Source: a virus. From it: 64,000 nucleotides of DNA. The position numbers and the translations under genes were made by a program. Within the stretch, counting starts at the first letter, position 1, and the number at the start of each line of letters is the position of its first letter. Positions 5,810-51,220 of this stretch are shown piece by piece. The stretch covers positions 7,383-71,382 of IMG/VR virus record IMGVR_UViG_3300036828_000565. One strand, 5' to 3'. The notes under the pieces are model-generated. The model had not been told where the DNA came from. It did not search any database and was given only the letters and a program-made list of their open reading frames with translations.

Positions 5810-5817
5810 GGAATATC

Positions 5818-7617
5818 ATGCCGAATAAGAAAAAGAATTCTTTAAGAAACAGCCTTCTTCCGGCAAATGACGATAGGAATTATATTCGTCAAGAAATCAT
5901 TGCTAAAGATTCATATAGTAATGTTCCAGCTAGAATTGGTGAGGGAACTCCCAATTTAACTCAATCTGGCCAGTATCCTTTATTAAGAATTACTGAAGAC
6001 TATCCTCTTATTCTTAGTCTCTATCGTTCTTCATGGGTCGTTCGTCGTGTTATCGATAGTGTAGCTAATGACATGTATAGTGCATTTCCTATTTTAGATT
6101 CACAGATTACTCCTCAACAAATTACATCTTTTCATAAAGTCATCAAAAAGACTGATACTGTTAAAAAATTGAAGAGTGCGGCAAAGTGGGGTCGTCTCTT
6201 TGGAGGAGCGGCGTGTATCATAGTTATTGATGGTCATGATGATTTAATGGAGCCTTTAGATGTTGATGAAGTTGAGATAGGTTCCTATAAAGGTCTCATT
6301 CCTTTAGATCGTTGGTCTGGAATTATTCCAGGTCCTGAAATTGATTCAGATGTCAATAACCCAAAGAATTTTGGTTTGCCAACTTACTATACTTGTATCA
6401 TGGATGCGGGAAGCGTAAATGTTCATCATTCAAGAATTATCAGGTTCACTGGTCGTGAGTTACCACAATGGGAAGTTCAGGTAGAACTATACTGGGGTAT
6501 GTCAGAGGTTGAGGTTATCTTTGATGAACTTAGAAAGAGGGACTATTCATCTTGGAACATTATCTCACTCTTGACAAGAGCTCAGATTCTCTCTATCGAG
6601 GAGCCACAATTAGCTACTTTGATGAGTGGTGCTGGTGGATCAAATACTGCTTACAATAACTTTACTCAAAGAATGGAGTCAATAAGCCAGCTTTTAAATA
6701 ATCAAGGACTTCTTGTACTTGGTAAGGATGGAAAACTTAACCAAGCTAGTTATAGTTTTGGTGGCATTTCTGATGTTTATCATGAGTTCATGAAGGATCT
6801 TTCAGCTGCTTGTGAGATTCCATATGAGATAGTTTTTGGCCGTGAATCTGGTATGGGTGGTGGTGGTAACTTCTCTAGTAATGGACAATCTTCTCTTCAA
6901 CTCTATGATAACATGGTTGAACAGAAACGTAATAGTGAAGGTAACCCAGTAATTGATAAGTTACTTCCTATTATTTGTATGAGTACTTGGGGACAGATTC
7001 CAGATGATATAGCTTATCACTGGGCTCCTATTAGATCTATTAGTGATAAGGAACGTACTGATCTTGGTAAATCATTAGTAGAGTCTATCCTAATGGCTTA
7101 TAATGCTGATCTCATTACAAAACAAGAGGCAAGAAAAGAGTTAGCTCAACAGAGTGGTACTAATGGTCTCTTTAGTAACATATCTGATGAATCAATTGCT
7201 GAGACTCCAGATAAGTTTGCTAGTGAGATACAGGCTGAGCAACAAGAGGACCAGATGCTTAAACAAGCAGCTATGCAAAAGGCAATGATGGGTGGTGCAG
7301 GTGGAGGTGGTGCTGGTGGTGCTGGTGGTGCTCCTCCATCTAATGGTGCCGGAGGTGGTAAAGCTGGTGCCGGCGCTTCACCTGCGATGGGAACTAGAAT
7401 GGGTGAACAAGTTCCTATTGAATCTAAACCAATTGGAGTTGAAGGTTTAAAGTGGCATAAGAGTAGAAGAATAACTACCGGAGGAAAAAGTAACACATCA
7501 GCTGAAGCTATGAAACAATCAATGAGACACTCTGTTAAGCATGAGATGAAGAAACCTGTTAAAGATAGTGATGGCGTTATAGATGGTTCTTTTATGATGT
7601 CTAAACCAATGAGATAA
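5818..7617 (+). CDS. Phage portal protein (DUF1073/HI1409 family) with Gly/Ala-rich C-terminal extension
   Basis: LYRSSWVVRRVID, WGRLFGGA, HHSRIIRFTG, WGMSE, IPYEIVFGRE motifs; ATG 5818 after AAGGA. Confidence 0.9.
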   Translation: MPNKKKNSLRNSLLPANDDRNYIRQEIIAKDSYSNVPARIGEGTPNLTQSGQYPLLRITEDYPLILSLYRSSWVVRRVIDSVANDMYSAFPILDSQITPQQITSFHKVIKKTDTVKKLKSAAKWGRLFGGAACIIVIDGHDDLMEPLDVDEVEIGSYKGLIPLDRWSGIIPGPEIDSDVNNPKNFGLPTYYTCIMDAGSVNVHHSRIIRFTGRELPQWEVQVELYWGMSEVEVIFDELRKRDYSSWNIISLLTRAQILSIEEPQLATLMSGAGGSNTAYNNFTQRMESISQLLNNQGLLVLGKDGKLNQASYSFGGISDVYHEFMKDLSAACEIPYEIVFGRESGMGGGGNFSSNGQSSLQLYDNMVEQKRNSEGNPVIDKLLPIICMSTWGQIPDDIAYHWAPIRSISDKERTDLGKSLVESILMAYNADLITKQEARKELAQQSGTNGLFSNISDESIAETPDKFASEIQAEQQEDQMLKQAAMQKAMMGGAGGGGAGGAGGAPPSNGAGGGKAGAGASPAMGTRMGEQVPIESKPIGVEGLKWHKSRRITTGGKSNTSAEAMKQSMRHSVKHEMKKPVKDSDGVIDGSFMMSKPMR

Positions 7618-7682: not shown

Positions 7683-10343
7683 ATGAATGAGCTGGCTGAG
7701 CTATTGGAGAGCTTGGCCACTGATGCAGGTGGACCTGGCGAGTTTAAATATGATGGTGGTCCTAAGCCTTATATTTCGAAAGAAACTGGAGAAGTTACTC
7801 CAAAATCTAAAGAACGAGTTGAAGGATTACAGCAACAAGAACCTGTTAGGCTTCCTGAGATTTCTATTCCTTTATTATCTCCTGAGCAGCAACAAAAAGT
7901 AGATACTCTATCTGCTAAGTACTCAGTTGTTTTGAATGGTCTTCAGGTTCCTAGTAAACCTTCTTCATTAAAAGAGAGTTTTAATAAAGCACTAGATTTT
8001 ATGGGGCTTCTTCCTTCTAAAAAAGCTTCTGTTTCATCTCGTAGAAAGTTTCTTACTCAATCTATGGCTGTTGTAGCTTCTACGACTGCTGGAGGTGTCT
8101 TAGGTAAGGGTGGTTTAAAGGCTCTTTCTGAGATGAGTGGGTTGTCTGCCGAGACTCTAGCTGCACCTTCGGCTGCACTAGTTGAGAAATCTTTTTCAAC
8201 TATAGCTGTTAAATTAGTGAATAGTTATCTCGATAAGTTTAAAGAGTCGTTTGGTGAAGGCTCGATTGATGAATTGAGGGAAATTAGAGTTGATGAAGCT
8301 GCAGAATCTGTTAATGCTAAAGATTTAATGTATTCTGTAAAACAAGTAGCTGAAGACATGGAAGAGAGTTTAAGAATCTCAGTCACTGAAGATAGTGCTA
8401 TATATCCAACTTTCTTAAGAGAGTTTAAAGATAGTGCTGAATCTTTAAAAGACATTCTAAAATTGGCTGGAGTTGATGAACAAAGTATAAGTAGATTTGT
8501 AGCTAATCCACAGGAACTTTCAAATTTGGCGGCAAGATATAGAAGTTCATTTGTTTCTCCAGAGAATGCCCCTTCTTGGAAACCAAAAGGTTTTCAACCG
8601 CCCCCAGAACAAATGGACATTTTAACTGAATTAGAAGCTGAATTGCCTCCTCCTGAAGGATTTTTTGCTGAAGGCGAAGCTTGGGAGTCATCTGAGGAAT
8701 TTGAGGCTCATAAGGTTAGACAAGCTGAATTTCAAGAAGAATGGAATAAGAAGTATCCACCAAGTGAAGAAGCTGAAGCCGCTGAACCTGAAACTGCTGA
8801 GGCTAAAGTAGAAACTGCTGAACAAGCTGAAGCTGCAGAAACATCAGAGCTTAGTGAATTGACTGCTGAAGGTGGTTCAGAATCTTCTATTGCTTCAGCA
8901 ACTACCAGACTCGCGGCTACATTTAATAGAATAGATAAGTTTCTGGCTGAAGAAAATAAAGAAGTATCACATGGAAGTAGAAACCTAGGAATTGATTCAG
9001 ATATCGCTCTTGACTATACCTTCATTCCTGAAGAACATCCTCGTCAGAAGGATCCTGATTGGGGAGGTAAGACACAAGAACTTGGGAATCTTCCTGCTCC
9101 TAAAGGTTGGCAAGAGGGTGGAAAATCTGGTGGTTTAGCTGCGACAGTTTATAATGCTCGTACACAGGAAGAAGCTGAAAGATTAGGCCAGATGTATCCT
9201 GAGTTTGATAAACTTGTTCAACATTATGTTGAAGTTCAAGATCAACTTACTAAGAGTTATGTTGCTGAAGGTAAAGGAGTAGTAAATCCTGATTTTGGCT
9301 ATCCTGAGTCTACTAAATTTAAGGAAGAATTTGTTGATCCAATAGAAAAGAGAATCGCTGAAGAAGAAAAGAAAATTCACTCTGAACTACAACTTTTAGT
9401 TGGCAAATGGGGTTCTGAACAGAAAGTTAGATTCTACGCTACTCCTGAAGGTAAAGCTCAAAAAGAAGAAGAAGAGCGTCAGATTGAGTATTGGAATAAA
9501 GAGAATGAGATACGCTGGGCAAAAGAAAAAACTGAAAAAGCTGAAAGAAAAGCTAAACTCAGCAAGTTATCTAAGACCGGAAAAGCTAAATTCCAAGATA
9601 AAGAAGTTGATGATTATTATAAAGAATATGGACTTAATTCAAAACAAAATGAAGCTTTAAAAGAGGATGAAGGAAAGTTTAAACGTACTAGGATGTTGAG
9701 TGAGCATGAATTACAGACTATAGATGAGTATGGAGCTAGTGCTGACTTCATTCAAGGTTATTTGGCTTTTAAGAGTCTTTCAGGAAGAGGAAGACCTGGT
9801 GGACAAGCTGCTCAGTTTGGTGGAGATGAGAAGTATGCTCAGACAATAGTTAAAGAAATGAGTAAAGCTTGTAATTCATTTGAAGTAAATCATGACCTTG
9901 ATGTATATAGAGGAATTAGAACATTTAATGATGAGAATGGTAAATTGAATGCTCAATCAAAGGCTTATTATGATGCATTCTTAAATGCTGAACCTGGTGA
10001 CACTATTCATAATCCTGCTTTTTCTTCTACTACAACTGATATGGGTCGAGCTGTTGATTTTTCAGAAATGCATTTAGATATTCAACATGCAGAAAAAGAA
10101 ACTCAAGAAAATACTGAAGGAATGATTCTTCATATTGGATTGAAAAAAGGTCAAAAAGCTTTAGAGATGAATAGAGCTGGTCATTTTGGTATGCTAGACG
10201 GATTAGAAACTAGAGAAGTTGTTCTTGATAAAGACTCCAGATTTAAAGTTGAGTCTGTTGATAAAGAAAAAAGAATCGTAAAACTATCTTTACTCGATAA
10301 AGGTACTGCAACAGATTCTGTAATTTCTTTAGTTTTTAACTAA
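7683..10343 (+). CDS. Large acidic head-associated protein with C-terminal ADP-ribosyltransferase (VIP2/Alt-like, R-S-E) domain
   Basis: DVYRGI (R), AFSSTT (STS-like) and ETREVVL (E) in order near the C-terminus; lies between portal and protease; AAGGA RBS before ATG 7683. Confidence 0.75.
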   Translation: MNELAELLESLATDAGGPGEFKYDGGPKPYISKETGEVTPKSKERVEGLQQQEPVRLPEISIPLLSPEQQQKVDTLSAKYSVVLNGLQVPSKPSSLKESFNKALDFMGLLPSKKASVSSRRKFLTQSMAVVASTTAGGVLGKGGLKALSEMSGLSAETLAAPSAALVEKSFSTIAVKLVNSYLDKFKESFGEGSIDELREIRVDEAAESVNAKDLMYSVKQVAEDMEESLRISVTEDSAIYPTFLREFKDSAESLKDILKLAGVDEQSISRFVANPQELSNLAARYRSSFVSPENAPSWKPKGFQPPPEQMDILTELEAELPPPEGFFAEGEAWESSEEFEAHKVRQAEFQEEWNKKYPPSEEAEAAEPETAEAKVETAEQAEAAETSELSELTAEGGSESSIASATTRLAATFNRIDKFLAEENKEVSHGSRNLGIDSDIALDYTFIPEEHPRQKDPDWGGKTQELGNLPAPKGWQEGGKSGGLAATVYNARTQEEAERLGQMYPEFDKLVQHYVEVQDQLTKSYVAEGKGVVNPDFGYPESTKFKEEFVDPIEKRIAEEEKKIHSELQLLVGKWGSEQKVRFYATPEGKAQKEEEERQIEYWNKENEIRWAKEKTEKAERKAKLSKLSKTGKAKFQDKEVDDYYKEYGLNSKQNEALKEDEGKFKRTRMLSEHELQTIDEYGASADFIQGYLAFKSLSGRGRPGGQAAQFGGDEKYAQTIVKEMSKACNSFEVNHDLDVYRGIRTFNDENGKLNAQSKAYYDAFLNAEPGDTIHNPAFSSTTTDMGRAVDFSEMHLDIQHAEKETQENTEGMILHIGLKKGQKALEMNRAGHFGMLDGLETREVVLDKDSRFKVESVDKEKRIVKLSLLDKGTATDSVISLVFN

Positions 10344-32479: not shown

Positions 32480-32773
32480 TTATCTGATATCATAAGTCAA
32501 TTCACAGTTATGATAGACCACTTTGGTCTTTGGCCTTTCTGGATCAGGGTCTATTATAGTTGTATCATGCTTAGCGTCACAAACAGCCGTGACATTTCCT
32601 TTGGAACTATGATCAATATCTAACTTTATCTTGCCTGAGCTAAGTTTAGTTACTTTGGGTTTTTGTCGATCGTTTGCATTAGCACTGTTAAGTTGAGCAA
32701 ACGCTCTTGATACTGGTCTACCGTATTGAGCAACCCACATTATCAAGGCTATGAATCCAATAAATTTAAGCAT
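32480..32773 (-). CDS. Hypothetical protein with N-terminal hydrophobic segment
   Basis: MLKFIGFIALIMWVAQY; GGAG RBS. Confidence 0.6.
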   Translation of the reverse strand: MLKFIGFIALIMWVAQYGRPVSRAFAQLNSANANDRQKPKVTKLSSGKIKLDIDHSSKGNVTAVCDAKHDTTIIDPDPERPKTKVVYHNCELTYDIR

Positions 32774-33197
32774 AAATTTTCTCCAATCTAGTTAGTTCAT
32801 TAGGCCTGGACAATATTCCTTTGATATCTGGAGGGATATAGTCCGGGCCTTTTGGTGTCTTTGTACCGTATTTCTGACCATCAACTGCTTTAACAGCTGT
32901 TTTGCTCATGTTGCTTCTGTGAACTTCAATAAAGATACGTTCTATAGGAATACCATAAGAAACACAAGTACCTATAACAACATAAATAAGATCAGCTGCA
33001 CCATCTGCAATTTCTTCTAAACTTCCTTCTTCTATCCCTTTAAGCATCTCTGCGCACTCTTCTAGTATTAATTCACTTCTTAATAGTTTAATAGAATCAG
33101 GAGGAATGCTAGGATAGTTAGAAATCATGTGACCGTATTTTTCATGAAAGTCTTTTAACATCTGTTCAAAGTTCAAAGATAATGTTTTCGTGTTCAC
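32766..33197 (-). CDS. MazG-like/PRA-PH nucleotide pyrophosphohydrolase (candidate dCTPase/dUTPase)
   Basis: LILEECAE, EIADGAADLIYV, EVHRSNMSK, KGPDY.PPD motifs. Confidence 0.85.
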   Translation of the reverse strand: MNTKTLSLNFEQMLKDFHEKYGHMISNYPSIPPDSIKLLRSELILEECAEMLKGIEEGSLEEIADGAADLIYVVIGTCVSYGIPIERIFIEVHRSNMSKTAVKAVDGQKYGTKTPKGPDYIPPDIKGILSRPNELTRLEKIYA

Positions 33198-33621
33198 TTC
33201 TACTCCTTTCCATAAGATGTCTAATTGATTCTACGCCGTGTCCTTTAGAGAAATAAGGACCTTTAAATAAAGGTATAGAATCCTTATCTTTATCTACTCT
33301 AAATGTTGAGAGTTGTGTGGTACTTAAAACAGCAGTCATCTTAATATCTGGATAGTAAATAACATATAGAACTAAAGCGTATCTTGATATTCGTTTACAG
33401 ACTTCATATTGACGAATATCGTTTATAGCTTCCCAGGGAAAACAACATGTTTCATCTGCCCCAGTCCCTATTTTGGTTTCATAGAATGTTACAAAACTAT
33501 GTTTAATGTGCATGTTATCTGGAAGACCTAACATTACTTTATCGCTAATCTTAATGATCTTCCCACCAATTTCTTTTCTAAGCTTTGAAGCAAGTAACCC
33601 ACTGAATGTTGATTCTTTCAT
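33166..33621 (-). CDS. PD-(D/E)XK nuclease (resolvase/VRR-NUC-like)
   Basis: MKES.F, GLPD, FYETK and Q motifs. Confidence 0.65.
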   Translation of the reverse strand: MKESTFSGLLASKLRKEIGGKIIKISDKVMLGLPDNMHIKHSFVTFYETKIGTGADETCCFPWEAINDIRQYEVCKRISRYALVLYVIYYPDIKMTAVLSTTQLSTFRVDKDKDSIPLFKGPYFSKGHGVESIRHLMERSRSEHENIIFEL

Positions 33622-34625
33622 TCAATCAACCTTTCTATGGTAGATATCACTTCTTCCTTGCTAGAGAGATGACTCTCCAGCCATTCTCTTTGAGCTACGA
33701 CTCTCTCCTCATATTCTTGAGGCCCCGCCAGAGATTCGAAATCACTAGAACTACCTCTATATGCTTCACCCATTAAGGAGGCGTCTCTAAAATCTGAATA
33801 GATTATCGTTTCAGCCCACGCTGCATTTAGGTACCTTGTTCTCCACCACCCCGACCCAGCTGAAGGATATCCACAAGATAGGATACCAAAACTATCTGCG
33901 AATAATTGAATAGTTTGAGACTCATTTAGAACAAAACCATCACCCATTCTTTTATTTCCAACATAGGAAACAGGAAACTCAAATCCTTGTTTGTTGACCC
34001 ATCTAGAGTGATCAGAGAGGGCTGCCATGATCCACCGTTTTTTCTTATTGTAAAATGTTGGAATGTCGATAGTTGGATACTTGACCCAACTTGATGGATC
34101 AACAGTATATAGGGTGGCATTATAGTTTTCTCTCATTAAAAATTCATGATCTCCCCAAGAAAACATTGGGGCTAATACAGGAGCATTGTTTCCGGCTAGT
34201 GCTATAGACACCATTAAGGAAAGACTGTTATAAGTACTTTCTATAGCTTCTGGACTACATTTAAAGTTCCTATAATCGAGATACTTTTCCCATCTTTCAA
34301 GAGTGTATCTTACCGAAGGACCGAAGTTACAGAAACTCCAGTCGTCAGCAAAAACAGCAAATTTTCCTTGCATTTGATCCATAGCATAATGAGTCTCTGG
34401 CACTAAACCCGCTGATATCGAACTTAAAGGAGCAACTCCTAGGAATGCGTATCTGTATTTCCAGGTTAAATCTTCTCCTATTATTACTTTCCTTCTTTCT
34501 ACATCATATCCCATATCTTTTAAGATATCCTCTAGAACATAGGCGAACGTCACGTAGTCACCTTGAATCCTAGTACTACCTGATGTTCGAGTGGTATAGC
34601 CAGATATTAAGATCTTATGCTTCAT
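33618..34625 (-). CDS. Putative DNA glycosyltransferase (GT-B-like fold)
   Basis: N-terminal KILISG and MGYDV; C-terminal FADSFGILSCGY.SAGSGWWRTRY..AA....IIYSD resembling a GT-B nucleotide-sugar-binding region; located in the modification cluster. Confidence 0.55.
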   Translation of the reverse strand: MKHKILISGYTTRTSGSTRIQGDYVTFAYVLEDILKDMGYDVERRKVIIGEDLTWKYRYAFLGVAPLSSISAGLVPETHYAMDQMQGKFAVFADDWSFCNFGPSVRYTLERWEKYLDYRNFKCSPEAIESTYNSLSLMVSIALAGNNAPVLAPMFSWGDHEFLMRENYNATLYTVDPSSWVKYPTIDIPTFYNKKKRWIMAALSDHSRWVNKQGFEFPVSYVGNKRMGDGFVLNESQTIQLFADSFGILSCGYPSAGSGWWRTRYLNAAWAETIIYSDFRDASLMGEAYRGSSSDFESLAGPQEYEERVVAQREWLESHLSSKEEVISTIERLIE

Positions 34626-34941
34626 TATCCTTTAGATCTCCCCATCTTATACAATTACCAACAGCTTCTTCACATTCTTTTCTATTTTTAAGTAACTTAT
34701 CTAAGAATTTAGGATCAACTTTCAAATCTATAACACCTCCAAAAGCTTCTCCACCTGGGTTAATTCCAAGTTCATGAGTCTTCATCACAGCAGATAAGAA
34801 CCCAGGAGCTTTCGTTATTACGGCTCCAAGAAATCTATTAGGTTCAGCAAATGATATATAGAAAAGTTGCTCAGGGTTATTTCTTTCTTCTTCTAACATA
34901 GCTACGAATCTAATTGCAGAATCAACGGTTATTTCATTCAT
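34615..34941 (-). CDS. Hypothetical protein
   Basis: ATGA overlap with the polymerase stop; FYISFA..FLGAV...GINPGGE. Confidence 0.65.
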   Translation of the reverse strand: MNEITVDSAIRFVAMLEEERNNPEQLFYISFAEPNRFLGAVITKAPGFLSAVMKTHELGINPGGEAFGGVIDLKVDPKFLDKLLKNRKECEEAVGNCIRWGDLKDNEA

Positions 34942-36836
34942 TCTGTACACCTCCTCCAATTTTCCCCTACTTTTATCTTCCAAAGAAGTGGTACACGGCA
35001 TGGAATACGTGAGTCAGGAGCCTCCAATAACTCTTTGAAATTTTTGGCTTTGGCCCTGTTCTCGATATCGCCATCGATCTCATCGTGTACAGTTGCACGA
35101 AGGTCCATTGTAAGTAACTTTCGGTTGCGATAAGTTTCGAGAATTTTGACCTTAAGAGTTTCGGCTGCGGTTCCTTGGATAATTGCGTTAAGAGCTGAGT
35201 GTAATCTTTCGCCGGTGGGATACCTTCGGCGTCGACCCATGATTGTATGGACATAGCCACGATTCTTTGCAACTCGCATTGCCTCTTGAGATAGACTCTT
35301 AGCTTCTGGAAATTTCTCATCATATTCTCTTGATATTGCAAAAGCCTTTTGCATCATGCAAGTTTTCTTATGATTTGCTTTGCACCACTGATCTCCTGGT
35401 GGAACCCCACAATTACATGGACAACCAAGTTTACGAGCTAATTTAGGAATTCCCATCGTATAGAGTTTTCCAAAGTTATTGTGCTTAGCATCTTTTCGTT
35501 TTTGACCAAGCAAATTAGCCACCAGTTGATGGAAATCCATTGTTGGGTCGGAACAGTAAGCAGAAATGAGTTTGTCTGATCTTGAATAATGGACGAACCA
35601 ACGGAATTCGATCTGGGAAGCATCAGCTGAGACGTAGAGCTTTCCGTCAGCAGGGATGAAGAGTTCTCGTAAAATCCAAGCAGCAATCTCATATTCCTCT
35701 AATTGAGATTCAACTTTCATGACTTGTTGAATGTTAATGCCCTTCTTATCTATTCCTCCAGAAGAAGCATATCGTCCGGTAACTGTTCCAAATTCATCAC
35801 TTCTTAATTGATGAAGTTGATAACGTAAGATGTTGTTGGCATCTAATAGATTACGATACTTTATAAGATACTTAGTTAGTAGTGAGTGAAGTTTTCGAGC
35901 CAACAAAATTGCTCTTACGCATGGGTGTTGTATTCTTCTTAGATACTCTTCTTCAAAGGTAACTTCACCGCCTAATTCTTCTTCTCTTCGTGGATATTCT
36001 AATCCAAGAGCATTAAATAATCGTCTAAGATCTGGACCGGAGTTAGGATTAACTTTAACTCCGGTCTGAGCATATAAAGAAAGAATCGCAGATTGATGTG
36101 CTTCTTCAACTTCTCTAATCCATAATTCTAATTTAGATCTATCTATTCTAGCGCCTGCTCGTTCCATAGCTACTGTTGAATAAATTAATTGGTCTTCAAG
36201 CTCGCAAACTGCAGTAAGTCCTTGATTGTCAATTTCTTCTTGTTGAAAAATGTCGAGTTCACGATGTAAGAAAGCGTCATGTTCCGCATAGGTCCCGACT
36301 TCACTAGCAGCCATGTCGGCAATGTTGTACTTTTCGCCTTCTGTTTCTTCTTTACTGATCCCCAATACATCGTTCGATAATTGATTGAGATTGAAGCGTC
36401 TACGATTTTCATCAAGTAAAGCCGCTTTGAAAGCAGGATCATGTACTTTAACATCGAGTTCTTCGAGATCCAATTCCCAGTTATAACAAACTTGAATATC
36501 ACCTTTTGCGTTGAGAATGCAGAGATGTCTACCTCTAAGGTTTCCTTTAGCCCAACGCCGTACGGTGTTTTCGTCAAGATTTCCTCCAGCTCGGTGACCG
36601 ACAGGCAGATAGTATCTTCTACCAAGGGGATCGCAAATCGCAATTCCAGCAAGTCTAGAGCGATAGATGTTTTTATTGGGGAGTTCAAATTCTGTATCAA
36701 AACCAAATTTCTCCTTTAAAGGAATTTGAGAAAAATCGGGTAGCTCGGCTGGAGCTACCCAACCAGTAGGTGCATGGTTTCCACTAAATAAAGATCCCAC
36801 CATTTCGGGTTGTGGATATCTTTTAGTCGGGCACAT
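34938..36836 (-). CDS. polA: Family A DNA polymerase with 3'-5' exonuclease domain
   Basis: Exo FDTE, NAKGD, YAEHDA; TGRYAS; motif A DASQIEFR, motif B RKDAKHNNFGKLY, motif C TVHDEI. Confidence 0.95.
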   Translation of the reverse strand: MCPTKRYPQPEMVGSLFSGNHAPTGWVAPAELPDFSQIPLKEKFGFDTEFELPNKNIYRSRLAGIAICDPLGRRYYLPVGHRAGGNLDENTVRRWAKGNLRGRHLCILNAKGDIQVCYNWELDLEELDVKVHDPAFKAALLDENRRRFNLNQLSNDVLGISKEETEGEKYNIADMAASEVGTYAEHDAFLHRELDIFQQEEIDNQGLTAVCELEDQLIYSTVAMERAGARIDRSKLELWIREVEEAHQSAILSLYAQTGVKVNPNSGPDLRRLFNALGLEYPRREEELGGEVTFEEEYLRRIQHPCVRAILLARKLHSLLTKYLIKYRNLLDANNILRYQLHQLRSDEFGTVTGRYASSGGIDKKGINIQQVMKVESQLEEYEIAAWILRELFIPADGKLYVSADASQIEFRWFVHYSRSDKLISAYCSDPTMDFHQLVANLLGQKRKDAKHNNFGKLYTMGIPKLARKLGCPCNCGVPPGDQWCKANHKKTCMMQKAFAISREYDEKFPEAKSLSQEAMRVAKNRGYVHTIMGRRRRYPTGERLHSALNAIIQGTAAETLKVKILETYRNRKLLTMDLRATVHDEIDGDIENRAKAKNFKELLEAPDSRIPCRVPLLWKIKVGENWRRCTE

Positions 36837-37278
36837 ATATCCTTCCAGCTATCTGTACTGCACACCCTGCTTCTAATAGAACAGTTAACCCAGACTTATC
36901 TGCATATTCTTCAATACATATAATAGCACCAATGTTTGTATTAACAATCATCTTAGCGCAAACAAAACAAGGAGTACAAGATGCGTACATAACACTAGCC
37001 CTACTAAGATCACTACACTGTAAAAGAGCGTTTTGTTCAGCGTGGACTGCCATACACTGTGATGTATCCCCTGATTTATCAGTAGCCCCCAAACAAGGAA
37101 CATCGATGCAATGATCAAAATTCTTGGGTACTCCGTTGTAACCAGTACTAAGAACATGTCCCTCCTTATCTGTTATAATAGCTCCAACTTTTCGTCTAAT
37201 ACATGTACTGCGGTTTGCTACTAATTTAAGCATCTCTAAATAATACTCAACTTTTGTTAATCTTGTTTGGGAGTTCAA
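36823..37278 (-). CDS. dCMP deaminase
   Basis: RSTC.RRKVGA, TGYNG, HAEQNA, PCFVC zinc motifs. Confidence 0.92.
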   Translation of the reverse strand: MNSQTRLTKVEYYLEMLKLVANRSTCIRRKVGAIITDKEGHVLSTGYNGVPKNFDHCIDVPCLGATDKSGDTSQCMAVHAEQNALLQCSDLSRASVMYASCTPCFVCAKMIVNTNIGAIICIEEYADKSGLTVLLEAGCAVQIAGRIYVPD

Positions 37279-38104
37279 GTAGTACCTCCAAGGCAGAATG
37301 TTTATCTTGTTCTAAAGCCGTAGCGTAACTTTTCCATGGTTCTTGTAAAGAGGCTGTTGGTTCTTTTCTTAATAGTATATTAGACATAACATGTTTTCCT
37401 GGAAATATGTTAGTTATTGTAGGAGAATAATGATAGTTAGCATCTTCAGACATTAATAGTGCCATAGCATTTTGAATGTTTATTTCATATAAGTGACTAG
37501 AAGCAAGGTTCATAGTAATTGAACCTACAGGTAAATTTAAATAAGAAGCTACTACATTAGTGTATTGAGTAAAAGTAAAGAAATCATATGGAAATCCTAA
37601 CCATACATCTGAACTTCTCATATTAACAGTAACATGTAATGCTCCTTCTCTAATAAGCCATTGAAGAGAAATAGTACAAGGTACATCTAATGAAGTAGAA
37701 GGTGAAGGAGTCCAAATAGTTGCTACAGCCTGTCTAGAATCCTGTTTTCTTAAAGATTCTAATATATAAAAAAGTTGAGGTCTTAAACGAGGACCATAAG
37801 CTCCTGATAGTATCTGCCCATCATCACTAAAATCTTTCATCACGGAATTGTATCTAATCAAATAAGAGAGCTCATTTAATCCAGCTTGAATCCAAAGCCA
37901 TTCTGCTATCATGAATCTATAATTTAAATCTCTGCTTGGACTAAGAATGATATTGTTAAGAGCCTTTTTAACTTCTACTGAAACGTTCATTATTTCTATA
38001 GTTCTTTTTCCTCTAGGAGAACTACTTACACCAATTTGAAATAAAGATGTAATTAATGCTCTCCATGCGTGTGAAACGCTTCCTTCTTTAATTAGTAGAG
38101 CCAT
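37247..38104 (-). CDS. Thymidylate-synthase-family enzyme, probably a dCMP C5-modifying enzyme (hydroxymethylase-like)
   Basis: AEWLW, GAYGPR, DSRQA, catalytic PCT, MRSSDVWLGFPYD with Asp at the E. coli ThyA Asn177 position, SSHLY. Confidence 0.85.
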   Translation of the reverse strand: MALLIKEGSVSHAWRALITSLFQIGVSSSPRGKRTIEIMNVSVEVKKALNNIILSPSRDLNYRFMIAEWLWIQAGLNELSYLIRYNSVMKDFSDDGQILSGAYGPRLRPQLFYILESLRKQDSRQAVATIWTPSPSTSLDVPCTISLQWLIREGALHVTVNMRSSDVWLGFPYDFFTFTQYTNVVASYLNLPVGSITMNLASSHLYEINIQNAMALLMSEDANYHYSPTITNIFPGKHVMSNILLRKEPTASLQEPWKSYATALEQDKHSALEVLLELPNKINKS

Positions 38105-39011
38105 GTATTCTTTCCTTAATAATGTCAGCAAGGACCTGTGAATTAGATCCTTTAAAACGTTTTAAATAAGATGGATGGGGAATGTAAGAAGTTTTGTATA
38201 TATGAGTAGCTCGCTCATCATACCATGCTTTAGCTGCTTGTCCCATTAAGAAAATATGCTCTATGTTGTTAAGCCAAGCAAGCATCGCTCCTAATGAGTG
38301 TATGTGATTTATCGGACTAAAAGCATTTGAGATGGCAATTTCTGATTCTTTTAATCCAGCCTTTATAAGAGCACTATTGAAATAACCACTCGATCCATTT
38401 AGTGCATGAAAAGGCACGTCGATACTAGGATGATTTGGTCTATCACCTATAAATAGATACTTTGCCTGTTTAGATCCTACTAAACCTTTAGGAGATCTAT
38501 TAGGTGGAAATTTATCTATATCTTGAATTAAAGATTCTACATTATTTTTCTCATAGTTAAAAATTCTACACTTGTTACTATAAGTCCAATCGAGATAACT
38601 CTCATACACTTGTTGAAATTTTTCCATAGATTTAAGAAAATCATTTGGATCTTTCATTTTAATAGAATAGTTATCTATAGCTACTTGTCTAAATGGAAGA
38701 CAAATAATTTGAGTGACTTCCTTACTATCACAGAGTCTCGTAAATAAAGTTTGACCATTATGTCCAAGACGATCTATTCCTCTTACTATTGGACCGTAGA
38801 TACGTTCACCTAACCAAAGACGATCATGAACAACATTTTGAGAACCTTCAATAGATTCATTTAGAATCTCAAGATAGTAAGCAATAAGATCTATATTATC
38901 AGGAGGGGGTCCTTCATGTTTGTATTTAAATCCAAACTCTTTTTCTAGTCTTTTAGCTAAGATAGTTTTACCACCTCCATCAGGACCTTCTAAAATTATT
39001 ACTTGTCCCAT
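38088..39011 (-). CDS. P-loop dNMP kinase fused to a uracil-DNA-glycosylase-superfamily domain
   Basis: IILEGPDGGGKT and HDR..LGE.IYG; C-terminal LFIGDRPN..PF..SSG, ISNA, FLMGQAA, HPSY. Confidence 0.8.
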   Translation of the reverse strand: MGQVIILEGPDGGGKTILAKRLEKEFGFKYKHEGPPPDNIDLIAYYLEILNESIEGSQNVVHDRLWLGERIYGPIVRGIDRLGHNGQTLFTRLCDSKEVTQIICLPFRQVAIDNYSIKMKDPNDFLKSMEKFQQVYESYLDWTYSNKCRIFNYEKNNVESLIQDIDKFPPNRSPKGLVGSKQAKYLFIGDRPNHPSIDVPFHALNGSSGYFNSALIKAGLKESEIAISNAFSPINHIHSLGAMLAWLNNIEHIFLMGQAAKAWYDERATHIYKTSYIPHPSYLKRFKGSNSQVLADIIKERIHGSTN

Positions 39012-40905: not shown

Positions 40906-42384
40906 TTAGAATCTATAAGCAAAATTACCATCAGGAAGTAAGAAAAACACTCTCTCCTTAGCTCTTGATACCGCGACATACCAGCACCTATGTTCATCAT
41001 CAGGATTCTTAATCATTCCTTCCCATACAGCTCGACTCATTTCAGGATCTATCAAAACAGTGTGTGCTTCTCTCCCTTTAGATTGATGAATAGACATTAA
41101 TTCTACCTTAGGAAGAGCACATCTTAGAAGACCTCTTTTTCTGACGTATGATACCATATTATCTTTTTCTGCTATATCTAAAAGTTGAAACCATTGTTGA
41201 ATATTAGGACGCTCTAAGAAAACCTCTTTAATACTTACTGTTTCTTGTTCTTTAATTTTTTGATGAACTGTAGGTTCGATATAGTCAAGATCACATACTC
41301 GTATAAGTTTCTTAACATCTTCTGATTTTGCCTCACCATGTTCAAAGAGTTGATACCATGCACCAAGAGTAATTCTAGAATCTAAATTATTAAATGGACT
41401 CCCTCTACCGATATATGGAATAGATTCATTTCGTAAGAGTTGTGAGATTTGTGACCCACGATAATGGTTTCGAAACAAAATAAAAGATTTATGATTTAGG
41501 TCTATAGATCCTAAGTATCCTGCATTAGCTACTAATCCTTCAGATTCTGTTGGAGCATATTCTTTTGGTAAACGTTTTCTTATTCTGTGTACAATTTCCA
41601 TTGCGGCATGATGAACTGCCTTTGATACTCGGAAAGATTGATTCAAAATCTCCGTCTTATCTACCACTAGGTCTTGGAAAGCGTTGCTATCAGCTCCAGC
41701 CCAGTGGAAGATCGCTTGATCGTCATCTCCTGCCACATACCATCTTTTAGCATTTGATCCAAGTCGTTCCACAGCATCCCATTGTAAAGCAGAGAGATCT
41801 TGAGCTTCATCAACAAAGATGACGTCAATGTCAAGGGGTTTGCCGTGCTCGATATATCGAGTGAGGAGATCGGTATAGTCAAACATTCCATTTGCTTCTT
41901 TCCAGGTTCTATAGGCATTTGTAAACCACCTAGCGTACTTGAAATCTATCTCTGTTGTAACATCTTGTAACGTATCTTTAAGATGGAGTTTTCTATGTCT
42001 TCCACAATGATTAGCTTGAAGAAGAATATCATCTCGAGTAGGAGCATCTATTCCTCTTTCAAATTCCTCAACCCATGGATCAAAATCATTTCCAGTAAGT
42101 TTAGCTCCTAATTGATTTCCAAAACTTCGAATATCTTCTGGTTTAACAATTTGATCTCTTCCTATTGCAAGTTGTCTATAACAAATAGCGTGTATAGTTC
42201 GTAAGTAAGGAAAGTTCTTCTCATCCTCACCAGTTCTTTGAAGTGCTTCAACTCTCGCCGCTCGCGTGAAGGTTAGGAAAGAGATTCTTTCTGGTTTTAT
42301 TCCATCTGCTATTTCTTTTTGTAGATAATTTAATAATGTCGTAGTTTTTGCGCAACCAGGGGGCCCCAGAATTTTTAGTCTCAT
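40906..42384 (-). CDS. UvrD/Rep-like superfamily 1 helicase
   Basis: GPPGCAKTT, LTFTR.A, TIHA, VDEAQD, GDDDQAIF, QSFR, SIHQSKGRE, YVAVSRAK. Confidence 0.92.
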   Translation of the reverse strand: MRLKILGPPGCAKTTTLLNYLQKEIADGIKPERISFLTFTRAARVEALQRTGEDEKNFPYLRTIHAICYRQLAIGRDQIVKPEDIRSFGNQLGAKLTGNDFDPWVEEFERGIDAPTRDDILLQANHCGRHRKLHLKDTLQDVTTEIDFKYARWFTNAYRTWKEANGMFDYTDLLTRYIEHGKPLDIDVIFVDEAQDLSALQWDAVERLGSNAKRWYVAGDDDQAIFHWAGADSNAFQDLVVDKTEILNQSFRVSKAVHHAAMEIVHRIRKRLPKEYAPTESEGLVANAGYLGSIDLNHKSFILFRNHYRGSQISQLLRNESIPYIGRGSPFNNLDSRITLGAWYQLFEHGEAKSEDVKKLIRVCDLDYIEPTVHQKIKEQETVSIKEVFLERPNIQQWFQLLDIAEKDNMVSYVRKRGLLRCALPKVELMSIHQSKGREAHTVLIDPEMSRAVWEGMIKNPDDEHRCWYVAVSRAKERVFFLLPDGNFAYRF

Positions 42385-42818
42385 AAAATTGCCTTTCCAT
42401 TTTTATACATTATAGCGGGTCGTAGTCTACTTTTTCTTAATCCTTCAGCTACATTTTCTCTATATTGAGGATCTTGCCATCGTGTTGCTATTCCTTCAGA
42501 AATTCTTTCTTTTGTTTCTTTACTTGGTGATATTCCAATATTCCAACCAGCAATAGGAAGTTTTTCTTTATCAGCACAATCCATCATATTGTCTGAATTA
42601 GTTCCTACGAAAATGTGTTCTTCATTAATACATTTTGGATTATCACAGTGATGACAGTACATTTTTCCTTCATCAAGATAGCCTAGTGATCTCTCTACTT
42701 TTCTTCGAGCTTGTGTTTTACTTCTTACTAAAATACACTCAGAATTCAAAGAGATCTGCCTGAGCCTGCGTATCTCGTTTAATCTCTCTAGTTTTTCTAG
42801 GCTCGGTTTCATCTTCAT
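42381..42818 (-). CDS. HNH homing-endonuclease-like protein with NUMOD3-like tail
   Basis: CHHCDNPKCINEEHIFVGTNSDNMMD; WNIG..PSKETKERIS. Confidence 0.8.
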   Translation of the reverse strand: MKMKPSLEKLERLNEIRRLRQISLNSECILVRSKTQARRKVERSLGYLDEGKMYCHHCDNPKCINEEHIFVGTNSDNMMDCADKEKLPIAGWNIGISPSKETKERISEGIATRWQDPQYRENVAEGLRKSRLRPAIMYKNGKAIL

Positions 42819-43227
42819 CCTTCTTTCTTATTGCCATTATCCAACTTTTACCAGGACAGGGAACATAATAAATATTATCATAGTACATAGGAGGATTGTC
42901 ATGTAAACTACGAGAAAACCTAGTGACATCTTCTTCTTTATATACTTCCATCCTACCGTGACTCATCATACAAAGAGCCATAGCAGCCCAATGATCGTGA
43001 TGCCTCATTGAGATTAAAGGAGCGAAAGTTCCTGCTTTACAAGCTATCAGGAATCCTAATTTTTTTAACTCAGAGTTATCTATTTTAGCAATTAAACCTG
43101 CCTCAAAAGCTTTAGTTATATCACCAACTATTGTTAGGATCTGTTCATCTCTTTGATACTCAACCCATTCTTCTAGGTCAAGATTCTTAGCAATGAATGA
43201 ATCATCATGAGGATCATAACTTTCCAT
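42739..43227 (-). CDS. Hypothetical protein
   Basis: AGGAG RBS; overlaps both neighbours. Confidence 0.6.
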   Translation of the reverse strand: MESYDPHDDSFIAKNLDLEEWVEYQRDEQILTIVGDITKAFEAGLIAKIDNSELKKLGFLIACKAGTFAPLISMRHHDHWAAMALCMMSHGRMEVYKEEDVTRFSRSLHDNPPMYYDNIYYVPCPGKSWIMAIRKKDEDETEPRKTREIKRDTQAQADLFEF

Positions 43228-43702
43228 GTTTTAACTCCTCTATTTTTCTATTGAGATACCATGATGCTTTCTCCAGATTTTCTAGAGGATTTCCTTTCTT
43301 ATCCCACCTTGAGATATACTTAATTGTGTTTCCTAAATGAAAATCTAGTTTCCATGCTTCAATTACTTTAATAGCTTCATATGTTGTATCACCACCGTAG
43401 TGAGCTGGGTGATTTACTGATTTAGATTCTATTGGAAACACTGGATTAGATCTTTGGACTACATTAAATTTATCTCTATAACCATAGACAAATTTAGACC
43501 CAGAAGGTAGCCATTGTTTGACTATTGCTGTTACGGTTTCTTTATATTCAGGACCTGGAGTTATTACTTCAATTGTGTAATCAAAGGTTACGCTCCATTC
43601 CCAACTATATGTTTCTCCTAGTATTTCTTTTAGTCTAGGAAATACTTCTAGCATAAAAGATTTCCTGAGTTCAGGAAGTCTAGCATCTTCTACGTTTATC
43701 AA
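43214..43702 (-). CDS. DUF3310 (T7 gp1.7/SaV-like) domain protein, candidate nucleotide kinase
   Basis: VNHPAHY, EAIKVIE, FHLGNTIKYISR..KKGN..E.LEKA.WYL. Confidence 0.8.
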   Translation of the reverse strand: MINVEDARLPELRKSFMLEVFPRLKEILGETYSWEWSVTFDYTIEVITPGPEYKETVTAIVKQWLPSGSKFVYGYRDKFNVVQRSNPVFPIESKSVNHPAHYGGDTTYEAIKVIEAWKLDFHLGNTIKYISRWDKKGNPLENLEKASWYLNRKIEELKHGKL

Positions 43703-44427
43703 TGTGGTCTCCTCATATTGTCAATTTGTCTTTCCCCTGGAATGATGTCATCAAAGAGCAGTGGTACGTTTTGCTGAAATTCTCTAAGTAATGAATCACA
43801 GATTTGACGAATTTGAGGATGAGCTTCTTTGGTTGTCCTCATAAGTAGCAGGTGTCTCCAACTACGAAGATTGGCAGTCGTTAGAATCTTGGCAGCTAGA
43901 GCATTAGGGAGAACTGAACGAGCTTCTTGAGGTCTCATGCCATTCTGTAAAGCTTTCTTATAATAAAACTCAGCATCATGAATAGCATTCATCCAACCGT
44001 CGTCATTGTGGCAGTCTTCTTGATTTTCTCCATGCCACCATAAACCATCGCTGTCTCGCCAAGCCTCGTCACCATCTAAACACCTAAAACAGGTTCGATC
44101 AGGAACCGGGTAAATGAAACTCGGTGGCATCTTCTTCTCATAGTTTACGAATCTAGTAGACTCTTGCGTAAAAGACATAAGACGATGACGAACCCACTCA
44201 TGAGTGATGCCCCTGTCCATAACTGCCATGACTGATATTGAACAATGCTCAACAACAGACCAATCACCGTGATCCACAACCACATTCTGAATAAACCTAT
44301 TCCATGTGTTTTCATTCATGTTCTCTTCTGAGCGATGTGAAATTCGGGCCCCAAACTCAATCATCTTTAAACCTTCACTTAATAACTCAGGTTTAAGAAT
44401 GTGCGCGAATGGCTTGATTATCTTCAC
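43699..44427 (-). CDS. thyX: Flavin-dependent thymidylate synthase
   Basis: RHRLMSFTQES (RHRx7S), SVVEH, QEARSVLPNA, NLRSWRH, AHPQIR. Confidence 0.93.
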   Translation of the reverse strand: MKIIKPFAHILKPELLSEGLKMIEFGARISHRSEENMNENTWNRFIQNVVVDHGDWSVVEHCSISVMAVMDRGITHEWVRHRLMSFTQESTRFVNYEKKMPPSFIYPVPDRTCFRCLDGDEAWRDSDGLWWHGENQEDCHNDDGWMNAIHDAEFYYKKALQNGMRPQEARSVLPNALAAKILTTANLRSWRHLLLMRTTKEAHPQIRQICDSLLREFQQNVPLLFDDIIPGERQIDNMRRPH

Positions 44428-46271: not shown

Positions 46272-47096
46272 TTAAAATGCTTGATGTTGTCCTTCTATAT
46301 CATTAGCTCCATGACCAAATTCTACTTCAGCTTCTTCACCAGTCGTATCAATTTTGATATTACTAGCTTTGAGTTTCTTAAACAAATGATCCATTTGATC
46401 AAAGAGTTCTCGATTTACGTATTTATCAGGCGTGATCTTTTTTTCAAACCATTGATTCTTATCTTTTTTCATTTCAACTACAGTTACTCTATAATACTTT
46501 GAAAACATTGGCATGTTAGTGAGACGAACAGCAGCTAAAAGTTGTTTTGATAATTTTAGTCCGGTAGATTTATAACTTACAGCAATTGGAGAAGGTATCT
46601 CAACATCAGGCATGAATGCCATAAAATTATGATATAGAGTACATAGTGGTGGATCATTTGCTGATTCAGATTCTTTAAGTGCCCCGTTACCCCAACTGCT
46701 AAATTGGCATGAAGCACAACTTGCTGGAGAAAGTCGTCCTCCATCAATCGCATTCACGGATATACAGTCTATACCCCCACCCTCATCTATATCTATGTAT
46801 TTGATTCTATTCTTAAAAAAGAATAAAGCAATGACAACTAAATCAATTCCATAAATTTCTTGAGTTACTGTATTAAAGAGTTGTCCTTCTTCTAAACCTG
46901 GAATATAAGCTGAATCACTTTTACGACGCTGAGGTGAAAGCGACTGACATAGACCAAGTCTAGGAAGTAGAATATCTGAGCTATCTACATCTTCCATACC
47001 TGCTTGATTACCAATTGTGCCCCTTAGAAACTCAGGGACCTCTTGATAGAGAGATGAATGTTTTTGTTTAGCTAATTCATTATCATTCGTCGTCAT
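46272..47096 (-). CDS. Probable single-stranded DNA-binding protein
   Basis: G.ED...DI.LPRL...Q.LSP, F.KSTGLK.SK-like motif, acidic tail ending in F; replication cluster. Confidence 0.6.
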   Translation of the reverse strand: MTTNDNELAKQKHSSLYQEVPEFLRGTIGNQAGMEDVDSSDILLPRLGLCQSLSPQRRKSDSAYIPGLEEGQLFNTVTQEIYGIDLVVIALFFFKNRIKYIDIDEGGGIDCISVNAIDGGRLSPASCASCQFSSWGNGALKESESANDPPLCTLYHNFMAFMPDVEIPSPIAVSYKSTGLKLSKQLLAAVRLTNMPMFSKYYRVTVVEMKKDKNQWFEKKITPDKYVNRELFDQMDHLFKKLKASNIKIDTTGEEAEVEFGHGANDIEGQHQAF

Positions 47097-47598
47097 AATT
47101 TACTCCCCTAATCATTATTGATTGTTTAAAGTATGGTTCGATTCCAGCAGGAACCGGTTGTCCATCTATAAGTCTAGATTTAACTAGACTGTTCATTGTT
47201 TGATAGTTTACTGAGAGAAGATCTTCCATATCATTTTCAGATATCCAGCTCATAAACGCTGGCTTATCTTTGACAGAAGAATAAACATCATCTTTAATTG
47301 AAATAGATACTCCACCCTCAAGTTTGACGCTAGTGTAATCTTGACTTTCCATCATTTCAATTAATTCTTGTTGAGTTGCTTCTACTATAATTTGTTGAGC
47401 TTTTATTAATGCATTAAGTCTAGCTTTCTCGGCTCTTGCTTTTGCGTAAACGATACCTAAACTTTTTACGGTTACTTGTTTACCGCTAGCTAAAAGCTCT
47501 CCTTTAACTTCATCTTTCATGAGGTTAACCTTAGATTGATAGTCGGGTTCTACCTCTACTTTAGTGAGTTGACTCTTAAATCCACTATATTTTCCCAT
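47083..47598 (-). CDS. Conserved phage replication/recombination coiled-coil protein
   Basis: Coiled N-terminus; AF..W..EN...DL...VN.QT....V......G...P.GI pattern. Confidence 0.6.
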   Translation of the reverse strand: MGKYSGFKSQLTKVEVEPDYQSKVNLMKDEVKGELLASGKQVTVKSLGIVYAKARAEKARLNALIKAQQIIVEATQQELIEMMESQDYTSVKLEGGVSISIKDDVYSSVKDKPAFMSWISENDMEDLLSVNYQTMNSLVKSRLIDGQPVPAGIEPYFKQSIMIRGVNYDDE

Positions 47599-50758: not shown

Positions 50759-51220
50759 TTAAATAACACCTGTAGGCCAGAAATAAGGAAGATTAGGATC
50801 CTCATCTGGCCAATATTGTCTATAATGTGTTGGGAGTTTTCTTACAAGATTTGATCGGTGCGATCTATGAAATGGTTCGTATCCGAGAAAAGAAGGAGGA
50901 TTTTCTTTTAATCCTAAATCATAATCCAAGCATTCTATAGAGTTACTATAGCCTCTTGAACACCATTCTCCTACAGCACAGGCTAAGTAATACTTAAGCC
51001 ATTCTTCGTGACCTGCCCACATTATTACAGCAGGATGATTCTTCCATTGAGAATTACTAAAATCAAAAGGAACTAAAGAATGAAGATTACTTGGAAGTAC
51101 CGGTTGATTAAGCAAAATTTCTAATATTTGAGCCGCTTCTATTCTCTGTTTTCCGAGCCTTTGATAGTCAAGGTACTCCATTGACTTCACGAAACTCTTC
51201 ACCGGTAGAAAGGTTTGCGT
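50759..51220 (-). CDS. Pyrimidine-dimer DNA glycosylase/endonuclease V-like (MSMEG_6728-type); probable ACG start
   Basis: (ACG)QTFLP..SF..S...LD..RLGKQR.EA.QIL, NHPAV.MW.GHE, EW..RGY, HRSHRSNL.RK, LPYFWP. Confidence 0.8.
   Translation of the reverse strand, partial: TQTFLPVKSFVKSMEYLDYQRLGKQRIEAAQILEILLNQPVLPSNLHSLVPFDFSNSQWKNHPAVIMWAGHEEWLKYYLACAVGEWCSRGYSNSIECLDYDLGLKENPPSFLGYEPFHRSHRSNLVRKLPTHYRQYWPDEDPNLPYFWPTGVI

Follow-up and report, generated by a model that had tools for sequence, protein, structure and literature searches.

Does the eight-gene run that surrounds a family A DNA polymerase gene at positions 32766-39011 of an uncultured phage genome serve to replace cytosine by a glycosylated base? 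The run lies in a window of 64,000 nucleotides, the whole stretch of DNA analysed here, which corresponds to bases 7383-71382 of IMG/VR virus record IMGVR_UViG_3300036828_000565 (71,382 bases, rated complete, 38% G+C); the sole sequencing run containing the record is labelled soil metagenome. Structural genes occupy the plus strand to ~32 kb, and beyond it the minus strand carries a block of replication and nucleotide-metabolism genes. We judge it probable that the run is a T4-like cytosine replacement module on a different chassis, in which 5-hydroxymethylcytosine (5hmC) is made and then glycosylated by a 335-residue GT-B glycosyltransferase, here called GT335. An earlier note had described the run as a kinase fused to a uracil-DNA glycosylase (UDG), a thymidylate synthase (TS) homologue, a deoxycytidine monophosphate (dCMP) deaminase, the polymerase (PolA), a hypothetical protein, a glycosyltransferase-like protein, a nuclease and a MazG-like pyrophosphatase. 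All eight open reading frames (ORFs) were found in place on the minus strand, and Pfam and PHROG bore out the TS, deaminase, polymerase, MazG-like and kinase labels; the UDG label has a Pfam match below the cut-off and the nuclease label a match to 4qbo at E 0.49, and the other labels stood. The module, together with ThyX, comprises:

38088-39011, minus strand: kinase-UDG fusion, 307 residues (PHROG, Pfam and family profile)
37247-38131, minus strand: TS (ThyA) homologue, 294 residues (PF00303, 1.3e-20)
36823-37278, minus strand: dCMP deaminase (PF00383, 1.5e-18)
34938-36836, minus strand: PolA, family A DNA polymerase with a 3'-5' exonuclease domain (PF00476, 1.1e-43)
34615-35001, minus strand: small ORF of 128 residues, no family assigned
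33618-34625, minus strand: GT335, GT-B glycosyltransferase, 335 residues (AlphaFold2 model and Foldseek)
33166-33621, minus strand: PD-(D/E)xK nuclease-like protein, 151 residues (conserved motif, weak structure matches)
32766-33197, minus strand: MazG-like nucleoside triphosphate (NTP) pyrophosphohydrolase, 143 residues (PF01503, 1.9e-15)
43699-44427, minus strand: ThyX, upstream of the module (PF02511, 6.2e-41)

The same gene order was found again in IMG/VR relatives at 44-75% TS identity and is therefore not due to chance; when 50,697 phage records were searched with the region by megablast, no match came up.

The argument begins with the TS homologue, whose residues 172-183 read RSSDVWLGFPYD. 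Aligned with E. coli ThyA, T4 gp42 and others, it has D149 at ThyA position L143, C152 at C146, T153 at H147, D175 at D169 and D183 at N177, and T4 gp42 has the same residues at all five positions. The Asp that the earlier note had seen at the dCMP-selecting site was recovered at the N177 column in two alignments, both including E. coli ThyA and T4 gp42; the TS homologue of Pseudomonas phage PaMx11, which we take to be a member of the thymidine-hypermodifying phage group, has Asn at 177. Among the best 120 database homologues (43-76% identity, leaving aside the gene call of the window itself), D177 and D169 are each present in 120/120, T147 in 119/120 and Asp at the third residue ahead of the catalytic Cys, that is at position 143, in 120/120; this last position was fixed by counting from the Cys (a 129-sequence MAFFT alignment was offset by one column there) and from the small alignment. 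The closest solved structure is that of the CMP hydroxymethylase MilA (4.4e-19). The protein falls under all seven NCBIfam thymidylate synthase cut-offs (best 64.2 bits versus 174.55), and in place of the Asn177 and His147 of a canonical ThyA with its equivalog score it has D183 and T153; nor does it have the Asn at 169 of 5-hydroxy-dCMP synthases of the RB69 gp48 type, D175 being kept. The database gene call is 285 residues long, so that translation probably begins some codons into the ORF as listed. As a separate observation, relative L017 (671-1514, on the same contig as L038) has a TS homologue split over three reading frames by two frame breaks, either a sequencing error or a decaying gene.

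Several of these residues are diagnostic in published work. According to sections 24 and 28 of Lee et al. (2026, PMC13326640), N177D gives a preference for dCMP, and section 24 adds that a bulky hydrophobic residue at 143 keeps water out and that hydroxymethylases have Asp or Glu there, an acidic residue going with a non-methyl product; the same paper also treats D169N as diagnostic of flavin-dependent 5-hydroxy-dCMP synthases. Positions 177 and 147 were those that best split TS homologues of cytosine-modified from those of unmodified phage contigs (Yang et al., 2021, PMC8670742, section 11), and in the MetaGPA contigs of that study, Asp177 and non-His147 mark cytosine-modified contigs, both being present in the window's TS homologue. 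Because L143D/C146/H147T/D169/N177D match these diagnostic residues, we predict that the TS homologue is a dCMP hydroxymethylase yielding 5-hydroxymethyl-dCMP (5hm-dCMP), and not a synthase of thymidine monophosphate (dTMP), 5-methyl-dCMP or 5-hydroxy-dCMP. The earlier note had left the choice among 5hmC, 5-hydroxycytosine and 5-methylcytosine: L143D, H147T, D169 and N177D support the first, and argue against 5-hydroxycytosine, which needs D169N, and 5-methylcytosine, for which a hydrophobic residue at 143 is expected.

The separate ThyX that the earlier note had pointed out is intact as well, in that its stretch RHRLMSFTQESTR, which we assign to ThyX by what we take to be the identifying motif RHRxxSxxxxSxR, is complete, and the gene is conserved in relatives L007, L008 and L010. 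ThyX would make dTMP, and the ThyA homologue would therefore be freed for another reaction. The dCMP deaminase (phrog_174, 1.9e-39) shows HAE and PCxxC zinc motifs in its translation and, by analogy with T4 cd and td, would supply deoxyuridine monophosphate (dUMP) for ThyX. Directly downstream of ThyX on the minus strand (43214-43702) lies a gene for a DUF3310 protein, a pair kept in relatives L007-L010.

A TS tree, proposed earlier as a check, put the window clade with the homologues of Stenotrophomonas phage AXL3, Manatee Spring phage MW202510 and Actinomycetia phage DSL-LC01 (support 80/80), apart from gp42 together with the homologue of Morganella phage Rgz1. With few references, saturation and long branches for all references, it shows only that the window clade does not derive closely from T4 gp42, and leaves its origin undecided.

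GT335 had no Pfam (E <= 0.01), NCBIfam or informative PHROG match. Its earlier label 'GT-like' agrees with the AlphaFold2 model built from a 23-sequence alignment, which has a GT-B fold (pLDDT 89.4, pTM 0.88), and with Foldseek against the PDB, where the top matches were all GT-B glycosyltransferases: SenB came first (1.0e-06), and T4 beta-glucosyltransferase (1bgt, 6.5e-06, TM 0.54) and T4 alpha-glucosyltransferase (1y8z, 5.1e-05, TM 0.53) were among them. Identity to the two T4 enzymes is ~10-12% in the structural alignments, and TM ~0.5 is as expected for two-domain enzymes so diverged. Close matches in BFVD (TM 0.7-0.8) are uncharacterised phage proteins, and the family profile, run against 1.84 billion representatives, retrieved 776 clusters at 50% identity, 345 of them at E <= 1e-30, with relatives well conserved. 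GT335 is a candidate DNA 5hmC glycosyltransferase. A literature search found no description of the family, although the supplements of PMC13326640 may bear on this novelty through further TS homologues or glycosyltransferases. No sugar-nucleotide gene was found in the 71-kb record, for which dedicated searches covered UDP-galactopyranose mutase (PF03275) and Glyco_trans_1_2 (PF13524), and 20 more ORFs, among them those in the 7.4 kb outside the window, yielded only a terminase when scanned with Pfam and PHROG; the donor would therefore have to be a nucleoside diphosphate (NDP)-sugar of the host. T4 glucosyltransferases, too, use a host-made NDP-sugar donor.

The company that GT335 keeps in other phages supports its assignment to this pathway. 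A scan of IMG/VR with the family alignment gave 264 relatives, of which the best 80 loci were kept; they represent only two or three lineages and not 80 independent observations. A TS homologue is present in 27 of the 80, with the signature D/C/T/D/D in 27/27, and where at least 9 kb of upstream flank is available the hmC-type signature was found at every locus (23/23). The remaining 53 loci lack TS because of truncation: their upstream flank is at most 7,335 bases, and the TS gene of that lineage ends 7.2-9.0 kb upstream. A MazG-like gene lies within 3 kb downstream of GT335 in 9/9 close and 42/43 distant loci with at least 3 kb of flank (51/52). In the lineage resembling DSL-LC01 we also observed a diverged paralogue of GT335, located between the first copy, which it directly follows, and the MazG gene downstream (L050, 11212-12195; DSL-LC01, 9085-10074), and the paralogue ORF is present in 67/80 kept loci (L034-L113); GT335 and its paralogue suggest two successive sugar transfers.

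Distant GT335 homologues also occur in 24 records of the phage collection, and the eight examined, one per organism group, comprise six with an hmC-type TS, one of 5-hydroxycytosine type and one with no TS homologue:

Actinomycetia phage DSL-LC01: hmC-type TS; same kinase, TS, deaminase and PolA run; glycosyltransferase adjoins UDP-galactopyranose mutase, and a MazG-like gene follows two genes later
MW202657: hmC-type TS; 'Pyrimidine hmase' and NTP pyrophosphatase gene on the same record
Aeromonas phage Aes012 (T4-like): hmC-type signature in a second, gp42-like TS homologue; glycosyltransferase adjoins UDP-galactopyranose mutase
Gordonia phages GMA2, Mareelih and Phendrix: hmC-type TS; glycosyltransferase in a small cluster adjoining a dUTPase or MazG-like gene
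Morganella phage Rgz1: TS with Asn at 169 (5-hydroxycytosine signature); glycosyltransferase within the polymerase-to-TS cluster, flanked by an arabinose-5-phosphate isomerase gene and an NDP-sugar gene
Cyanophage-family phage C48C1: no PF00303 match

Mareelih and Phendrix have additional glycosyltransferase annotations next to the GT335 homologue. From their sequences the three Gordonia phages are predicted carriers of glycosylated 5hmC, and for GMA2 a literature search found no report of DNA modification. In Rgz1 (OK499989.1; 5893-6960 and 10979-11683) the TS homologue gp33, with Asn at 169 and Glu at 143, lies in a cluster with arabinose, NDP-sugar and GT335-type genes, the last being gp40 (hhalign 99.3%, E 9.8e-21). 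Section 24 of PMC13326640 does not list Gualtarvirus, the genus of Rgz1, so that arabinosyl-5-hydroxycytosine may extend to this genus with a different first glycosyltransferase.

Fusion proteins tie GT335 to nucleotide and methyl-transfer functions. In P0213 it is joined to dUTPase_2, the Pfam family matched by the T4 dCTPase gp56, and in P0228 and P0241 to Methyltransf_23, the family of the methyltransferase that in AXL3 and MW202510 accompanies the core of MazG, kinase and TS. The picture is one of a conserved core with interchangeable decorating enzymes, GT335 or methyltransferase. Two further GT335 proteins, P0193 (867 residues) and P0200 (484 residues), have extra N-terminal regions without a Pfam match.

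The kinase half of the fusion (about residues 1-170) matches phrog_761 thymidylate kinase (3.1e-16) and has a conserved GPDGxGK P-loop (EGPDGGGKT) and DR motif (DRLWLGE), and is not a Tmk equivalog (18.1 bits versus an NCBIfam cut-off of 83.25). The family profile of the fusion, compared with the PDB, matched YorR best (3.2e-06), and also the Thermus family-4 UDG 1ui0 (0.002). The UDG half (about residues 179-293) scores 18.6 bits with Pfam UDG, below the 24.3 cut-off; it has the motifs GDRPN and HPSY, conserved as G[DE]xP and HP[SQ]Y, and we take motifs A and B of family-4-like UDGs to be G-E-x-P-G and H-P-S. The fusion is found in AXL3 and many relatives, and as two separate genes in MW202510. 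Its sequence makes the kinase half a candidate 5hm-dCMP kinase of the dTMP-kinase/YorR-like P-loop type. YorR is also the structural match of the DLP3 'nucleotide kinase' next to the TS homologue and first glycosyltransferase, and the RB69 and RL38J1 equivalents have thymidylate kinase matches (PMC13326640, Table 1). PolA (also PF01612 at 4.6e-07 and phrog_17 at 7.4e-77) presumably incorporates the modified deoxynucleotide. The MazG-like protein is a solid PRA-PH/MazG member (57.5 bits versus a 21.3 cut-off; phrog_671, 2.7e-28) whose closest solved relative is DR2231 (4.9e-12), and is a candidate hydrolase of deoxycytidine triphosphate (dCTP) and/or deoxyuridine triphosphate (dUTP), the dCTPase role being suggested because of the T4 analogy and the linkage.

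The T-even 5hmC pathway (gp42, gp1, gp56, cd, td and the alpha- and beta-glucosyltransferases) has the same logic and set of roles as the window module: both have an Asp-type ThyA homologue and, separate from it, a dTMP synthase, along with a dCMP deaminase, a nucleotide kinase, an NTP pyrophosphatase of the all-alpha type and a glycosyltransferase of GT-B fold. The parts, however, differ. The window kinase is thymidylate kinase (TMPK)/YorR-like and fused to UDG, whereas T4 gp1 is a different kinase type; its NTPase is of the PRA-PH/MazG type and T4 gp56 a dUTPase_2; its dTMP synthase is ThyX instead of td; its polymerase is of family A and that of T4 of the gp43 type. The window TS homologue is ~25% identical to gp42 and not grouped with it, in a genome of 71 kb, and GT335 is without sequence similarity to the T4 glucosyltransferases, though alike in fold. 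That glycosylation would be by enzymes unlike the T4 set, as had been proposed, is supported by this shared fold without shared sequence and by the linkage of GT335 to hmC-type TS.

In the glycosylated 5-hydroxycytosine clusters of RB69, DLP3 and RL38J1, a TMPK/YorR-like kinase, a ThyA homologue and a DNA glycosyltransferase likewise stand side by side, but their TS enzymes have D169N, use flavin and form 5-hydroxy-dCMP, whereas the window TS keeps D169; they also encode their own NDP-arabinose or UDP-galactofuranose supply, of which none was found in the window phage (PMC13326640). No RB69 or RL38J1 protein related to GT335 was found by tblastn. AXL3 and MW202510 have the same core of NTP pyrophosphatase, kinase, Asp-type TS and dCMP deaminase, although both have a Methyltransf_23 gene where the window lineage has GT335. 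The AXL3 TS homologue is 37% identical to that of the window, with the same signature and neighbours, and AXL3 also has ThyX. According to PMC7504290, only 2 of the 37 restriction enzymes tried could cut AXL3 DNA, and the sites of both consist of A/T alone; its authors considered G/C bases to be probably altered; this resistance fits cytosine replacement by the shared core and does not give the identity of the base. The MetaGPA study pursued a 5hmC carbamoyltransferase, and a GT335-type glycosyltransferase is not described in the accessible part of PMC8670742.

Taken from the genes and families observed, the signature, the glycosyltransferase fold and the linkage across phages, the activities we infer would run as follows, how far cytosine is replaced and which sugar is added being inferred likewise. 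The ThyA homologue would hydroxymethylate dCMP to 5hm-dCMP, which the dTMP-kinase-like half of the fusion would phosphorylate, host NDP kinase completing the triphosphate 5hm-dCTP. The MazG-like pyrophosphatase would lower competing dCTP and/or dUTP, and dCMP deaminase and ThyX would provide dTMP for a genome of 38% G+C. Phage PolA would build 5hmC into DNA, and after replication GT335 would attach a sugar to the 5-hydroxymethyl group, with an NDP-sugar made by the host as donor. The outcome would be glycosyl-5hmC DNA that resists restriction.

Could the TS homologue make another product? If it were a dCMP methyltransferase as in Xanthomonas phage XP12, the DNA would contain 5-methylcytosine, and N177D alone is indeed enough to convert ThyA into a dCMP methylase (PMC8670742, section 11), while AXL3, the nearest cultured relative, infects a Xanthomonadaceae host. 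The Asp at 143 in all of the best 120 relatives, as in hydroxymethylases and where ThyA has Leu (PMC13326640, section 24), and a methyl group that would give the tightly linked glycosyltransferase no attachment point, nevertheless make this improbable. A flavin-dependent 5-hydroxy-dCMP synthase like those of RB69 and DLP3, with the sugar ether-linked directly to C5, we consider exceedingly improbable: the diagnostic D169N is absent, Asp being kept in the window protein and the best 120/120 relatives, even if the trio of TMPK-like kinase, TS homologue and glycosyltransferase is the same as DLP3 gp78-80, RB69 gp45-48 and RL38J1 gp214-216 (PMC13326640, Table 1 and section 25), and a GT335 homologue occurs in the arabinose-type cluster of Rgz1, whose TS has N169. 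An enzyme acting on dUMP, be it an ordinary thymidylate synthase or a dUMP hydroxymethylase for thymidine hypermodification, would be fed by the dCMP deaminase, whose gene adjoins that of the TS homologue, and homologues are annotated as thymidylate synthase in GenBank and in the AXL3 paper (PMC7504290); yet all of the best 120 relatives have Asp at 177, where the dUMP-type PaMx11 protein has Asn, ThyX already covers dTMP and the TS equivalog cut-offs are all missed widely, so that we rate it as very improbable.

A different question is whether 5hmC is made and incorporated while GT335 glycosylates a non-DNA target (host envelope, phage protein or small molecule), the hydroxymethyl group staying bare or being decorated by another enzyme. 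GT-B acceptors are very diverse, the top fold match of GT335 is a selenosugar synthase, SenB, C48C1 bears GT335 with no TS homologue and no sugar-nucleotide genes were found in the window genome. Against this stand the position of GT335 inside a replication and nucleotide operon, its occurrence with an hmC-type TS in all 23 informative loci and with a MazG-like gene in 51/52, its fusion to a gp56-type dUTPase (P0213) and its place within the cytosine-hypermodification cluster of Rgz1, and we regard a non-DNA target as unlikely. Replacement of cytosine by 5hmC followed by glycosylation by GT335, our preferred reading, has points weighing against it that go beyond C48C1 and the lack of any NDP-sugar gene found in the genome. 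The phage is uncultured, and the reading is drawn from sequence and predicted structure. The TS homologue shares only about a quarter of its residues with gp42, in a saturated tree; the signature residues are correlative, and L143D is also present in the PaMx11 protein, of the dUMP hydroxymethylase type. GT335 resembles the T4 glucosyltransferases only at TM ~0.5 and ranks them behind SenB. AXL3 lacks GT335, and its restriction resistance could stem from guanine modification. BLASTP found no similarity between the MazG-like protein and T4 gp56, and DR2231 reportedly, by the title of a paper, acts exclusively on dUTP; dCTP exclusion, and hence full replacement, is unproven.

A wider reading, which we put forward tentatively and only as a whole, is that GT335 founds a large family of DNA-base glycosyltransferases decorating 5hmC or 5-hydroxycytosine in phages whose hosts differ widely (among them Gordonia actinophages, uncultured phages from soil and lakes, and T4-like phages of Aeromonas, Morganella and Providencia), that the final base here is an undescribed glycosyl-5hmC and that the UDG half adds a base-flipping step. 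Sugars other than glucose, furanoses for example, are suggested by the repeated occurrence of GT335 next to genes for UDP-galactopyranose mutase and arabinose. The kinase-UDG fusion may act not only as a nucleotide kinase but also add DNA-level base flipping, for proofreading or for marking unmodified or deaminated pyrimidines.

T-even phages already exemplify the principle, and MetaGPA had reported Asp-type TS homologues in metagenomes; new are the combination of parts (TMPK-UDG fusion, MazG-type NTPase, ThyX and PolA), their abundance in environmental phages and the large unnamed GT-B family. If our reading is true, complete T4-style cytosine replacement with sugar addition would not be a T-even speciality but a transferable module, widespread among phages of soil and fresh water that have family A polymerases, and GT335 would name a new large DNA glycosyltransferase family, easily tested on existing 5hmC DNA substrates; 5hmC DNA glycosyltransferases are useful reagents for 5hmC labelling and mapping. 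An Asp-type TS together with GT335 and a MazG-like gene would provide a sequence rule for hypermodified cytosine in uncultured phages, with a bearing on metagenome library bias, restriction and CRISPR evasion and the choice of therapeutic phages. Cultured carriers, namely the Gordonia phages GMA2, Phendrix and the Forza group and Aeromonas phage Aes012, make the prediction directly testable.

Two members of the run, both present as described earlier, probably lie outside the pathway. The 151-residue protein has invariant E3, GLPD35, E48-x-K50 and Q71 (a PD...ExK motif), and in its match to the VRR-NUC protein 4qbo the PD/ExK motifs are aligned; its model is of low confidence (pLDDT 58.9), with fold matches to RecU (best, E 0.036), PrfA and Hjc that are not significant. 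Because in MW202510 and DSL-LC01 the corresponding place after PolA is taken by a VRR-NUC or RuvC-like gene, we read the 151-residue protein as probably an ordinary resolvase-type or VRR-NUC-like replication/recombination enzyme. The 128-residue ORF had no Pfam or NCBIfam match and nothing at or above 0.9 in the protein atlas; among related loci it occurs only in the closest relative (L007/L034), is not conserved with the module and is probably not a core part of it.

Elsewhere in the window, an HNH endonuclease ORF (42381-42818, minus strand) lies between a UvrD-like helicase gene and an upstream 162-residue ORF, which it overlaps; it has no counterpart in any related locus, both neighbours abut in relative L007, and it is probably a recent homing-endonuclease insertion. 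At 46272-47598 (minus strand) two genes match the Pfam families named for Pseudanabaena phage Pam3 gp34 and gp33 and adjoin an archaeo-eukaryotic primase (AEP-TOTE) and a SNF2 helicase, in a block kept across relatives. A pyrimidine-dimer DNA glycosylase homologue (PF03013) is encoded at 50759-51202 (minus strand), and the DSL-LC01 module has one too. Palindromes in the phage genome have observed/expected ratios near 0.93-0.99, for G/C-containing and A/T-only sites alike. Positions 1-6000 (plus strand) have a G+C content of 0.43-0.47, compared to ~0.37-0.39 elsewhere, and carry two very large ORFs of 879 and 976 residues.

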